Shown piece after piece: positions 40,338 through 46,253 of a stretch of 64,000 nucleotides of DNA (positions are counted from its first letter, which is position 1; each line of letters opens with the position of its first letter). The notes under the pieces are model-generated. The model saw nothing but the letters and a program-made list of their open reading frames with translations, made no database searches and was not told where the DNA came from. The translations under genes were made by a program, and so were the position numbers. The stretch spans positions 24,428,001-24,492,000 of the forward strand of contig OZ024749.1 in assembly GCA_964016885.1 (NCBI GenBank). Direction: 5' to 3'. The stretch comes from Eledone cirrhosa. Its lineage: Eukaryota.

Positions 40338-40984
40338 AATATGGTTTTATAAATATAATTTCCATTTATTTAATATCGTAAATATACTCCAAATACTTGT
40401 TGAGTGCTTTTATATCAGTTATAAATATTTACTCGTTGTAACCCAACAATTTAAATATAACTTTCCATGTATTTATATATATATATATTTATATATAAAA
40501 ATTTATATATATAATAAAAATATATATTTAGCAGTATTAGTTATAGATGTTACGAGTGACATAATAATGATATTAACAGCAGAAATTAGAGAGGAAATAT
40601 ACGTTTATTTTTGTTGTAGCACAAACAATGGTGTGGTACAGAGGCTGGTTTCTGGCGTGTGATCAGTCGGCTTTCCAGTGGCTGTCTGTCTTTTCTTTCT
40701 CGCGTTCTCAACCGGCGTTGTTCTATCAAGGGACGTGAGGCGTCTTACTACAGTACCTCGAGCCAGATTTTCAAATTATTGAAAATCGATGTCATTACTC
40801 AAATGTGGAGTAAGATGGCGAACAAAGCAACAAGGGGGAGCTATTCGCTCTACCAAAAATTGAATCCAGAATAAGGATTTGAAAAATGTTTAAAAAAAAC
40901 AAAAAAAAACATGCATGCATAAAAAAAAACAAGGCAAAGAAAAAGCAGAAACACAGAGGCAAAAAAAGGTGCAGCTAACATAGT

Positions 40985-43900
40985 CTAAATATAGACGGTG
41001 CTGCAAAATTGTTTGGGCCAGTGGACACTACGACCTGAACGGGTCGTGGTCTTGTAACGTGGCGATGGCGGTGGTGTAGGGACAGGCGATGATGGTGGTT
41101 CAGGAACAGTCGTTCGCTCTACAGGCAAATACGAAGGGGTTCGTGGATCAGGAACCACAGCGTCCGTGTCAAGGTGCGCCTGCTTAAGCCTGTCTATTGT
41201 AACTGTCTCCCTGGACCCCTTAATATCTAACGTGAAATGCTTAGCCGAGCGCGCTAAGACACGGTAAGGTCCAGTGTAAGGCTGTGTGAGCGGGGGCTTC
41301 ACAGAATCTTTCCTTACAAAGACATGCGTCCACGAGGCAATATCCCTCGGGACAGCAGTCTTGACAGTTTGTTTCCTAGTGTCCATTGGCGGCAAATCCT
41401 GGAAATAGGAGCGCAAACGGGACACGTAGGAAGCGTGATCTTGGGCATCAAGATCGATAGGGGCAAGCATTTGCCCGGGCAACGTCAGAGGGGCACCGTA
41501 CAGTACTTCGGCCGGTGAAAATCCAAAGTCGACCTTCACCGTTGACCGAATCCCTAGTAGCACAATAGGGAGGTACTCGCTCCAATGCGCCGAGTCCATT
41601 GAGGCCATTAAAGAGGCCTTCAGTTGTCGGTGAAAACGCTCCACCATACCATTCGAAGCGGGATGGTACGCCGTAGTTCTAATGCGTTTAGCACCAATTA
41701 ATTTTGACAGCTCGAGGAAAAGGCTCGACTCGAACTGTCGTTCACGGTCGGTAGTTATTTTGGATAGAACTCCATAACGACAGATCCATCCAGACACCAG
41801 AGCACGTGCTGTTGTCTCCGCGGTGATGTTTTTCAAGGGTATGGCCTCAGGCCATCTCGAAAAACGGTCAATGACGGTCAGCAGATAAGAAAAACCATCG
41901 CTGGCAGGCCAAGGTCCGACTATGTCAATATGAATATGTGAAAAACGCGCATCTGAATTAGCAAAGGTACCCAGGGGAGCCTCGACGTGTCGATGGACCT
42001 TTGATCTCTGGCAAGCGACGCAGGAACGGCACCAAGCAGCAATTTCACGCCTCATATTTGGCCAGAAAAATCTATCTGATATGAGCTTTGCTGTGGCAGA
42101 AGATCCTGGATGCGAGATACTATGTAATCCCAGAAACACGGTCCGACGATGATTCTCTGGAACGAAGGGCCTAGGCACGTCCAACGAGACGTCGCAGAGA
42201 ATTTGGCCAACTGCAGTCGACAGAGGCAAGTATTTCATCTCGCAATTCGCAAACTCAGGCGATGTGACATCTAATGACTCAAGGGGAGGCTGATCCGCAG
42301 CCAAACGAGTCAGATCTATGTCAGAGGATGACGAGATCGCTGTCACGGGTAAGCGGGACAAAGTATCGGCCGCTGTATTTAGTGAACCCTGAATGTGCTG
42401 GATATCACTCGTATATTGCGAGATGAAATCAAGGTGTCTCGTCTCTCTGGGCGAGTATTTATCAGCCTTCTATCTCAAAGCAAAAGTCAATGGTTTATGG
42501 TCAGTGAGGATAGTAAATTGTCTACCTTCTAGCACATGTGAAAAATGTTTCACGGCCAAATAGATGGCTAAAAGCTCTCTTCCAAAGGTGCTGTAGCGCG
42601 TCTCAGCAAGATTTAGCTTTTTGGAAAAAAACTCCAGCGGTTGCTGGTAACCATTGATGTTTTGCTGTAGTACTGCGCCCACAGCGATATCCGATGCATC
42701 AACACAAAGCGTTAGCTTTGCACCGGGTACCGGGTGAGTCAGTAACGAAGCATTAGCCAAAACAGTTTTGGCGTGCTGAAAATCAGCAAGTTGAGTGTCT
42801 ATCAAAGAAATATCTTTGTTCTTCTTCCGACAATTTTTCAAAATTTCTGTCAGGGAGAAAAGCAATTTTCCACAATTTGGCACGAAACGCCTATAAAAGT
42901 TAACCAGACCTAAGAACTGGCGTAACTGACGTAGTGAGGTCGGTGGAGGCAAATCCTATATGACCTTAACTCGCTCAGGCCGGGGTCGAATACCGTCAGC
43001 ATCGATGACGTGACCCAAGAAAGTCAGTGACTCAGCACCAAAAACACATTTGGGTGCATTAAGCTGCACGTTATACGCCTTCAATCGGCGGAAAAGAAGA
43101 TTCAAATGGTGCGTCTGCTGCTCTGGAGAAGAACTAGCAATGAGCAGATCGTCAATATTGGTATAGACGAAATCGAGGCCGCGAGTAACCTCATCCATAA
43201 ACCGCTGAAAAGTACTAGCGGCATTCCTTAATCCGAACGGCATAGTAAAAAAACTCGAAAGACACAAATGGCGTAACTATAGCAGTTTTTGGAATGTCAT
43301 TTTTATGGACAGGAATTTGATGGTACGCACGAATTAAATCCAGTTTGGAGAATATCTTGCATCCCTGCAACGAAGACGCAAAGTCTTGCAGATGAGGAAT
43401 AGGATAACGGTCCGGTACCGTTATCGAATTCAGGCGTCGATAATCTCCAGTAGGTCTCCAATCGCCATTCGCTTTCGGTACCATGTGTAATGGGGACGCC
43501 CACGGGCTCGTGGACGGACGAATAATCCCCATTTGCAGCATATGATCAAACTCTGATCGTGCTGCTTTGAGTTTGTCCGGAGGCAAGCGGCGAGGACGAG
43601 AAAAAACGGGAGCACCAGTTGTAGATATGAAGTGCTCTGTGGTATGAGTTGGTTCATCAACTCGAAAATTTCCCCGAGTCAGTTGCGGGAACGAGTTCAA
43701 CAGCGCATGATAAGGATCACCGGTGTTAGCAAGAAAAAAGGTCGGGCTAACCGTTGGAACTCCTGCTGCCTTGCCAACAACAGTTAATCCAGTGATGCCA
43801 TCAATTAGGCGTTTACGACGAAGGTCCACCGTCAAGGAAAAATGGTGGAGAAAATCCGCGCCTAGAATCGGATACGGCAAGGCAGCGATAGTAAATATCC

Positions 43901-44192
43901 ATTTAAACTCGCGCCGCAGATTACGAAACTGCAAAGGTAACGAGATTTGTCCGAAAGTTCGAATCGGCGAACAATTTACTGCCTGCAACTCAATAGGCGT
44001 CTCAGGGGGAGTCTCCTTCATACAACACACAGGCCATACGGAACAAACTGCACCTGTGTCAACCAGAAAAGCTCTACCTGACAGCAGGTCCTCAATGAAA
44101 AAGTGGCGGTTAGATGTTGTTTCGCAGAGCGGACTATCCGCCGTTAGTGAGTCTGGTCGTCTTTTCCCTCGTAAGCACAAGGAGGCATACAA
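40985..44192 (-). pseudogene. pol: Gypsy pol (PR, RT, RNase H, integrase) with stops and frameshifts
   Basis: [31 protein letters not shown] (YxDD mutated); VDASD, ELLA, TDHKPL; HHCC and D,D,E intact. Confidence 0.93.
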
Positions 44193-44937
44193 CGAGCGGC
44201 TTTTTTACCATATCTGTCATGGTAATAACAATATGGTGATTCTGGTGTGTTGGAAGGGCTACGGTGGCGAGAAGTTGAATAACGTCGTGAGCGGCTCCTC
44301 TGCCGTCCAAAGGACCTGAATTCCTTGCACAACTCCGCCATTTGACGAGTCATGGCTTCCATTGTGGTGATAAATTTGTCATCAGACGCTGATGAGCGTG
44401 ATTGAGGAAGAGAAGAGGAAGCAACGTACTTTGGCTTCGAAGTGTCTCTCTTCGTCACCTCTACAATTTTGTCAGCAGAGACAGCAATGTGATCCAGGGT
44501 ATTCACCTCTAGCATATGGGCTAGGATCGACTGTACCTCTTGAGGTAGGCGAGAGAAGAACACTTTCTTCAGGAAAGGGCTATCCTTATCTTGTGAATCG
44601 CTCAAATCCCGCAAATGCCGGAGAAAAGCGGTAGGGGTCCTGTCACCTAATCGTTTCTCCTCGATCAATGACCGAAAACGACTCTCTACCGACTTACAAT
44701 TCCTCCTCAACATCTCGCCCTTCAAATACTCATACGTCAAGTCAGAGGGGGGTCTGTAATTAGGTATTGGACCGAATCTGCCAGATTAGGGGGAAGGCCG
44801 CTAATCTGTACAGCGAGGCGCTGGTCAAATTCGGTCTTACAGACCGTAAAATACGCCTGTAACTGGGCAAACCACATCTTAGGTTTTCCAGTAAAGGCGG
44901 GAAAATGTGGCACATTCATGTTAACGTTTAAAATCAA
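44144..44937 (-). pseudogene. gag: Gypsy gag, frameshifted near 44740
   Basis: PKMWFAQL..YEYLK..LGDRTPT..; CYYH..C..PC knuckle; GGGAAAA slippery site at about 44162-44168. Confidence 0.85.
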
Positions 44938-45807
44938 AAAAAATATATAAACATATATATCTAAACAGCAATTAATGTACCCTTGTACAGTAAAAAGAGA
45001 ACAGACAATATTGAGAAAAAGTTAAAGTGCAAAAAGAAACAGACATTCAAAACATTAGGAAATATGAAAAATACATAAAATACATATATATATTTCTTAA
45101 AAAAAAATTCCCTTCAACGTCTGTCCCCTCGCGTTGCTTCAACGAACCAGCCAAATCAAATAAGGTAAAAAAGAGGAGAAAAAAAAAATGTTCGTTTTTT
45201 AAAATATATCCACGTTGGATATCAACAAAGGTAGCCAGTGGCTAAAAATCCCTTAGAAAAAGGTAAGGCATGTATATCCCCATGAGGGGCAGTAATGTTC
45301 ACAAAAACAAGTTACTTCTCTTCTCTCTTGATCAGTCATGGAACACACACGCAATTCAAAAAATGTGTTCGTCGGAAAATTACAAAACTGGGAAGGAACG
45401 CAACGTCACATTGGAAATATACTGGTTTTGCTTTCTTTTTTTTTTGGTAAGTTGCGAAAAAGTTGGCAACGGCAATGAAATATTCAAGTGAATAAAAAAG
45501 AAGGCTGCTCTAAATTATTTACACGAATGAATCGTTTTGATATTTCCGATGTGTGGTGGTTTGCGTCGGTAAGGCTATGAAGCTGCCACTCACTATTCCC
45601 CGTTTTGGTCAGTGGTTAAACAATGTTGTCGCTGCTGTTGCTGTCGTTGTTGTTGTCGAGTGTAGCAAAAGGTTTTTGAAATACTACTAATTTTTCAAAA
45701 AAAAACTTTGAAAGGAACATATTGTATCTTCGCAAGTTGCCAAAAAGGCCGGCAACATGGCAATAAACGTTCAACTGAAAGAAAAAGAAGGGCTGCGTTA
45801 AATTCTT

Positions 45808-45820
45808 ACGTCGGTCACCA
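45808..45820 (-). promoter_or_regulatory. Primer-binding site, tRNA-Trp-like
   Basis: TGGTGACCGACGT versus the expected TGGTGACCCCGACGT, 1 nt from the terminal unit. Confidence 0.65.
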
Positions 45821-46253
45821 CTTTAGCAGTATTAGTTATAGATGTTATTATGTTACTCGTGTCTCAATAACATCTATAATCCATGCTGCTGGAATTGGCG
45901 ACCTGACGAGAGGAATATTGTAAATAGATGGTAATTAGATCGAGGGACCTTCCCTCACGTCTATGTCAACAAGATAATCCAACGAGGATATTATCACTTA
46001 CCACACTGGCAACTAACGACCTTCAATCATCTACCCTGTTAAAGTGGCGACTACTCTATAACCAATACTGCTAAATATATATATATATATTTATATATAA
46101 CAATTTATATATATATAACAAATATATATATAAATACATATATATATATAAAAAATATATATATAAATATATATATATATTTATTTTTATTTATATATAT
46201 ATATATATTTATTTATATATTTATTTATATTTCTATATATATTTTATTTATAT

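Follow-up and report, generated by a model that had tools for sequence, protein, structure and literature searches.

Conventional Ty3/Gypsy retrotransposons (Metaviridae) carry gag followed by pol in the −1 frame, with the pol domains in the order protease, reverse transcriptase (RT), RNase H and integrase, between two direct long terminal repeats (LTRs) that run from TG to CA. A primer-binding site (PBS) beginning with TGG starts one base past the 5′ LTR, and target duplications of 4-6 bp flank the insertion. We analyzed a copy of such an element, 5549 bp long and lying on the minus strand from position 46075 to position 40527, in a 64,000-nucleotide stretch of Eledone cirrhosa DNA (GenBank assembly GCA_964016885.1, contig OZ024749.1, positions 24,428,001 to 24,492,000 of the forward strand; this whole stretch is referred to as the window). 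The family to which it belongs shares the coding order, the two direct LTRs, the PBS and the target duplications (here of 4 bp) of conventional elements, but its LTRs run from TG to AA and the position of the polypurine tract (PPT) is poor in purines. The window copy departs further, since it is without a 5′ LTR except for the last 23 bp, and these are preceded by an inverted piece of a foreign LTR. It is almost certainly a one-off chimera of two ordinary families.

Errors of strand transfer are known mostly from retroviral studies performed in vitro or over a single replication cycle. “LTR swapping” was reportedly described in soybean by Du et al. in 2010. The non-autonomous LTR-retrotransposon families of sugar beet include chimeric elements (PMC13570524). 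The case described here resembles such partnerships of autonomous and non-autonomous elements in that a 2.7-kb element, in which no pol similarity was detected, has its PBS, its leader and, within the LTR, the R-U5 side in common with the 5.5-kb family of the window copy, and in that a second chimera (L062) combines the two. The foreign LTR piece in the window is inverted and partial, however, whereas the described chimeras swap whole LTRs in the normal orientation.

Three retroviral or retrotransposon processes are relevant. Co-packaged LTR-retrotransposon RNAs recombine at high frequency (PMC5668417). Self-priming by the minus-strand strong-stop DNA of HIV-1 (human immunodeficiency virus type 1) has been documented in vitro (PMC6088434), and for the same virus an intermolecular second-strand transfer has been proposed (PMC5651808). 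In self-priming, the 3′ end of strong-stop DNA primes on DNA of the same sense and gives a fold-back with a short loop; the window copy has comparable arms of 25 nt (84%) with 16 nt between them. The HIV-1 product is formed in vitro, intramolecularly and as a dead end, whereas in the window the priming would have occurred in trans and the product would have been completed and integrated. The likeness to an intermolecular second transfer is that the 5′ LTR region derives from another template than the 3′ LTR, in L062 and, under the model set out below, in the window copy; the retroviral cases involve near-identical LTRs in normal orientation. Literature search listings yielded no natural LTR-retrotransposon copy with an inverted 5′ LTR piece produced by aberrant reverse transcription, which does not establish that none is in print.

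Inverted terminal sequences of ∼21 bp also give the window copy a superficial likeness to DIRS-like elements and to terminal inverted repeat (TIR) transposons or miniature inverted-repeat transposable elements (MITEs). Unlike those, it has the same LTR end, in two copies, as its termini; none of the copies examined is a solo unit, and by exact pattern the layout does not recur. The element has rve and Integrase_H2C2 domains, its relatives have ordinary direct LTRs, and neither a tyrosine recombinase nor a transposase domain was found by Pfam on its open pieces.

Composition of the 5′ unit

The preliminary description of this DNA had reported a Gypsy element without matching LTRs, bounded by inverted termini, and had left three readings side by side: a lineage with split or asymmetric termini and non-CA attachment sites, a chimera, or capture by a TIR element. 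The terminal parts of the element and its flanks were resolved as follows.

45845..46075, minus strand: U, an inverted piece of 231 bp, matching in reverse complement the final 231 bp of a sibling long LTR, on its U5 side
45822..45844, minus strand: the terminal 23 bp of the short LTR, normally oriented and identical to the end of the 3′ LTR and of 28 of 29 other copies
40527..40752, minus strand: the 3′ LTR proper, 226 bp from TGTAG to CTAAA, of the autonomous short-LTR family
46076..46634, no strand: (AT)n microsatellite of the 5′ flank, period 2, 283 copies, 560 bp (46075-46634)
40470..40526, no strand: TA-rich microsatellite of the 3′ flank, 58 bp (40470-40527)

In all DNA searches of the genome the best 40 of ∼1200-1500 candidates were scored, and pattern searches were exact, with no mismatch allowed. 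The 231-bp piece had at least 1495 candidate matches genome-wide. The 40 other scored matches were 96-99% identical and ended between positions 231 and 236 of the 254-nt query, none of them reaching further. In all 29 other copies examined, this core formed the 3′ end of a complete LTR of 551-582 bp, and its orientation relative to the PBS and leader was the opposite of that in the window. Neither the core as a solo TIR unit (0/29) nor the 254-bp unit on its own, a possibility raised earlier, occurred among these copies, and capture of the element by a TIR transposon finds no place in a core that sat inside a complete LTR in each of them. The outer end of U, TTTAGCAG..., is an exact LTR terminus.

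U meets the 23-bp short-LTR end at a junction with 3-4 nt of microhomology (ATAA/TTAT), and the join forms a 25-nt, 84% hairpin-like inverted repeat with a 16-nt spacer. Some 205-212 bp at the start of the 5′ LTR have been replaced by the inverted 231-bp piece, so that the window copy has no two direct near-identical LTRs and its ends are linked by a 26-nt direct repeat alone. That repeat is exact and present where it had been reported (40527-40552 and 45822-45847). The other structural observations of the preliminary description were reproduced as well: the 21-nt TIRs of the 254-bp unit (45822-45842 and 46055-46075, complementary at 20 of 21 positions, or 95%), the outer inverted termini of the whole element set in an (AT)n tract, the adjacent inverted 16-mer (15/16 positions matching), and the TGTAG..CTACA block at 40615-40752, which follows a purine-poor stretch and has no counterpart at the 5′ end. 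The apparent 21-bp TIRs arise because both outer ends are U5-type LTR termini, one from each family. Since both families have more than 1000 candidate copies each, the parts in the window are not chance matches. It was the chimera reading that proved right: the 5′ unit joins an inverted long-LTR end to a short-LTR end.

The short-LTR and long-LTR families

To characterize the 3′ terminus, window positions 40527-40800 were used as a query against the 3.0-Gb genome, which gave at least 1191 candidates; among those scored, the 39 other than the window copy covered the whole query at 91-95% identity. At 28 of 29 other loci examined the short LTR ended in ...CTGCTAAA / ...AATACTGCTAAA and gave way to unrelated flanks, the remaining locus being truncated; 40527-40752 is therefore the normal short LTR of this family. 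Its length of 226 bp, as against ∼235 bp elsewhere, is due to a private 8-bp deletion.

For 20 of these loci (L061-L080) 8 kb of upstream sequence was fetched. Fourteen of the 20 relatives were full-length elements of 5352-5745 bp with two ∼235-bp LTRs, and the LTRs of a pair were 93.2-99.6% identical. Conventional LTR pairs in other copies were the very observation that the preliminary description had named as counting against a distinct kind of element, and they leave no room for a lineage of asymmetric termini; the part of that claim concerning non-CA ends stood, since TGTAG...CTAAA is family-wide. The other six relatives were truncated, internally deleted (such as L068 and L072) or, in one case, chimeric (L062). 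Adding one internally deleted copy to the 14 full-length ones gave 15 two-LTR copies, of which 14 had a perfect 4-bp duplication abutting TGTAG and CTAAA (the exception matched at 3 of 4 positions). The termini are thus TG...AA instead of the canonical TG...CA and are bounded directly by the 4-bp duplications. Note that LTR finders demanding TG...CA could miss this family.

The 5′ LTR of the relatives is directly followed by G and TGGTGACCGACG..., and the PBS-like motif TGGTGACCGAC... begins one base past the LTR in the window copy and relatives alike. The same PBS-like sequence lies 3′ of the 5′ LTR in full-length copies and in the long-LTR family. Each of the 15 two-LTR copies has the motif GGCTCGAGGTAC, conserved yet purine-poor, just ahead of its 3′ LTR. 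Family members encode a gag of ∼270-290 amino acids and then, in the −1 frame, a pol of ∼1066 amino acids, which is uninterrupted in 3 of 14 copies. The short-LTR family is a conventional, abundant Ty3/Gypsy family. As a separate observation, four of the 15 two-LTR copies (L065, L066, L067 and L079) have a PBS variant, GTGGTGACCCCGACG, that is 2 nt longer and replaces GTGGTGACCGACG.

The inverted piece derives from the second family. A typical carrier on C1 is a 2.7-kb element with two 551-bp LTRs (TGTAGTGACC...CCAATACTGCTAAA) that are 99.8% identical, an internal part of 1.6 kb and a target-site duplication (TSD) of CATA. Its PBS is the same as that of the window copy, its leader is 81% identical, and no nucleotide similarity was detected between it and the gag-pol region in the window. 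On the basis of the common PBS, the similar leader and the lack of similarity to gag-pol, the 2.7-kb long-LTR element is probably non-autonomous and a partner of the short-LTR family, which is autonomous. The 5′ parts of long and short LTRs are unrelated; from the ATAAATAAAC motif onward the two are homologous (79-87%). The long LTR contains an extra block of ∼205 bp, flanked by direct repeats of TCTATAA, just before the shared terminal ...AATACTGCTAAA.

Three further observations on the long LTRs were made in passing. The ∼205-bp block lies on the U5 side, at ∼345-550 of the long LTR (for example of the LTR at L010 1181-1731), and its 7-bp flanking repeats look like those of an old insertion or duplication. 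Long LTRs come in two forms, of 551-552 bp and ∼580-584 bp, which are ∼30 bp of indels apart (L022-L025, L027 and L030 versus other loci). The distance between paired long LTRs is 1.4-2.2 kb, as if there were several subfamilies, probably non-autonomous.

Uniqueness of the arrangement

A 91-mer crossing the junction was spanned by the window copy alone among the 40 matches scored out of 1515 candidates, the others matching one side or the other. When the genome was searched for the exact pattern of an inverted LTR end, 10-260 nt, and an LTR end followed by the PBS start, a single match was obtained, which was the window itself (control, 0 matches). Among the candidates scored and by exact pattern, the junction and layout were found in the window copy only, and the prospect of independent insertions repeating them was not borne out. 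No other long-type or short-type sequence was found elsewhere in the 64-kb window. In a search of sequencing runs, five matched the junction at 45844/45845 in part; the Logan contigs of four runs were short and repeat-collapsed, none contained at least 31 letters on both sides, and no joint was reported, which speaks neither for nor against the junction.

A second chimera

One of the 20 relatives combines the same two families in another way. At locus L062 (G000:C1741:97600-105600, reverse-complemented, with the element at positions ∼5348-7933) a long 5′ LTR and long-type leader come first, short-type pol takes over at element position 3823, and the 3′ LTR is short. The element is flanked by a TSD of AATT within a 92-bp satellite, neighboring units of which show the uninterrupted empty site. 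The TSD and the empty satellite units point to integration, in one step, of a cDNA with unlike ends drawn from both families. L062 is a chimera independent of the window copy, and few histories would seem to fit it other than one integration of a cDNA with LTRs from different templates.

Origin of the window copy

Our best guess is that the chimera was made before integration, through false priming by the sibling family's minus-strand strong-stop DNA on the minus-strand U5 of the window element, and we would give this a little under an even chance. Long-type and short-type RNAs, which have the PBS, the leader and the R-U5 side of the LTR in common, would have been packaged together. Long-type minus-strand strong-stop DNA, extending from the tRNA junction to 231 nt inwards, would then have annealed through ATAA/TTAT to short-type minus-strand U5. 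Extension of the annealed end across the remaining 23 nt of U5 and across the PBS templated by the tRNA would have yielded a chimeric plus-strand strong-stop DNA, and its normal second jump a cDNA with U5 at both ends and a normal 3′ LTR. Integrase would finally have inserted this two-U5 cDNA into (AT)n. A single mis-priming event of this kind would account for all features of the window copy.

Several observations favor this proposal, L062 and the HIV-1 precedents cited above among them. [quoted passage not shown] Both breakpoints lie on the U5 side of the ATAAATAAAC motif, where long and short LTRs become homologous, and the short-type U5 end, PBS and leader are intact. Private substitutions number 3 in 231 for the inverted piece, 3 in 226 for the 3′ LTR and 80 in 5019 aligned sites for the rest (the last with 14 comparators only); since these rates are similar, no age difference is detectable between the parts. 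Trans-mobilization and co-packaging are plausible because leader and PBS are shared at 81-93.5% identity. Purely intramolecular self-priming of long-type strong-stop DNA was considered separately and ruled out, as the 23 bp after the junction are short-type CTAATACTG and not CCAATACTG.

A number of points weigh against mis-priming before integration. The mechanism is drawn from a single fossil copy, and the exact pattern search of the genome found no second of its kind; only the best 40 of the ∼1200-1500 candidates were scored, and the pattern search admitted exact matches only. The mis-primed end would have been held by just 3-4 nt of pairing, and joins at microhomology are just as characteristic of DNA end joining. 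The positions of R and of the transcription start in the long LTR would need to make 231 nt a natural strong-stop end or pause. The model requires removal of the tRNA from the long-type strong-stop DNA; outside the left terminus there is no complement of the PBS. The integrase of this element would have had to accept two U5 ends. The TATA found on both sides of the element fits a 4-bp target duplication but is uninformative inside (AT)n and proves nothing.

A chromosomal rearrangement after integration is a serious alternative, although distinctly short of an even chance, and could have taken either of two forms. Long-type and short-type elements may have inserted head to head in the same (AT)n tract, after which a deletion at the 3-4 nt of microhomology removed everything between about position 320 of the long LTR and the 23 bp that end the short 5′ LTR. 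Alternatively, a break in (AT)n or in the 5′ LTR may have been mended with sequence copied, by way of microhomology, from an ectopic long LTR together with the TA-rich DNA beside it. Odd transposable element ends come most often from nested or adjacent insertions that later underwent deletion, which counts for a history of this sort, as does the setting: insertions of both families are found in TA/CA-type microsatellites (in at least 4 of the 29 other 3′ flanks examined and around the long-type element on C1), and the (AT)n tract here is 560 bp long. A left boundary at an exact LTR terminus would be equally natural for an integrated long LTR, the microhomology fits end joining, and internally deleted relatives, such as L068 and L072, do occur. 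More events or coincidences are nevertheless needed than with mis-priming. The head-to-head form requires two insertions and one deletion, while no remnant of either family lies elsewhere in the 64-kb window; for random deletion ends, the placing of both breakpoints in short U5-side stretches with the PBS spared is a coincidence that we put at ∼0.15 by our own estimate; and equal private divergence of the two parts is not predicted. The reciprocal junction expected of an inversion gave 0 matches to an exact two-motif pattern, which should be considered weak evidence because a lossy or mutated junction would escape such a search. Two simpler routes were rejected. Homologous recombination between inverted LTRs would yield a hybrid LTR in normal orientation and not a fold-back, and a long-type insertion nested in the 5′ LTR would have LTR sequence to the left of the inverted piece, where (AT)n is found.

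The remaining explanations are much less probable. An assembly artefact, in which a chimeric read or mis-join set an inverted long-LTR piece beside a 5′-truncated element, is made conceivable by the location of the junction, which adjoins 560 bp of (AT)n and falls in sequence with more than 1000 repeats. We consider it very improbable: the two sides share 13 bp of identical inverted sequence, plus the 3-4 nt where they meet, and an assembler would need far more than that to overlap them; the inverted piece is no fold-back of its own locus, as it carries the ∼205-bp block specific to long LTRs and has three private substitutions. Still more remote, to the point of being scarcely credible, is a Gypsy lineage with asymmetric or split termini or capture by a TIR transposon. 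Inverted termini with 20 of 21 positions matching, which bound the 254-bp unit as well as the whole element, would suit either; 14 of 20 relatives with conventional LTR pairs, no free-standing core among 29 copies, a layout seen once in the genome by exact pattern, and an rve integrase where Pfam found neither transposase nor tyrosine recombinase all speak against them. For annotation, the window copy is best treated as a rearranged copy of a normal Gypsy family and not as a new class with inverted termini.

Returning to mis-priming before integration, the window copy could be a genomic fossil of “self-priming” in trans within a retrotransposon particle, subsequently integrated through two U5 ends, which we hold to be possible at somewhat less than even confidence. 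If so, it would record, together with L062, in vivo exchange of strong-stop DNA between co-packaged partner families, and it would indicate that integrase takes U5/U5 substrates naturally. If the window copy was formed before integration, it and L062 would document, from nature, errors of strand transfer between an autonomous element and its presumed non-autonomous parasite.

Coding region and other features

The internal parts of the window copy are given below.

45803..45820, minus strand: PBS-like TGGTGACCGACGTAAGAA, starting one base after the LTR end
44920..45802, minus strand: leader (5′ untranslated region), short-LTR type, with 81-93.5% similarity to its counterpart in the long-LTR, probably non-autonomous family
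44147..44919, minus strand: gag, with a DUF7041 match of 24.6 bits, under the Pfam cut-off of 28, and a frame change near 44740-44785
40988..44204, minus strand: pol, in the order protease, RT, RNase H, integrase, with a broken frame
40753..40987, minus strand: 3′ untranslated region, ending in the purine-poor PPT-position motif ...GGCTCGAGGTAC

Pfam searches of the open pieces gave, in minus-strand order, DUF7041 (weak), RVT_1 (E-values 8.4e-16 and 1.4e-10), RT_RNaseH_2 (1.2e-28), Integrase_H2C2 (2e-17) and rve (2.5e-11). The earlier assignment to Gypsy therefore holds, and the placing of integrase downstream of RT and RNase H is the Ty3/Gypsy order. A protease DTG motif was located at 44052-44060 by direct reading of the minus strand. 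The gag open piece is 213 amino acids long, versus 268-293 in the six relatives with the longest gag frames. In pol there is a frame change near 43215-43276, and in-frame stops occur at 42956-42958 and 42470-42472. By its broken gag and pol frames the window copy is decayed.

The leader contains an internal partial duplication (45436-45519 and 45533-45842), both parts of which are matched by one ∼85-bp stretch of the long-type leader, and 27 nt are directly repeated at 45478 and 45765. Past the (AT)n tract further microsatellites of ATAC, AC and TG were seen at 47137-47516 and 47942-48000; the element therefore sits in a compound simple-repeat region.

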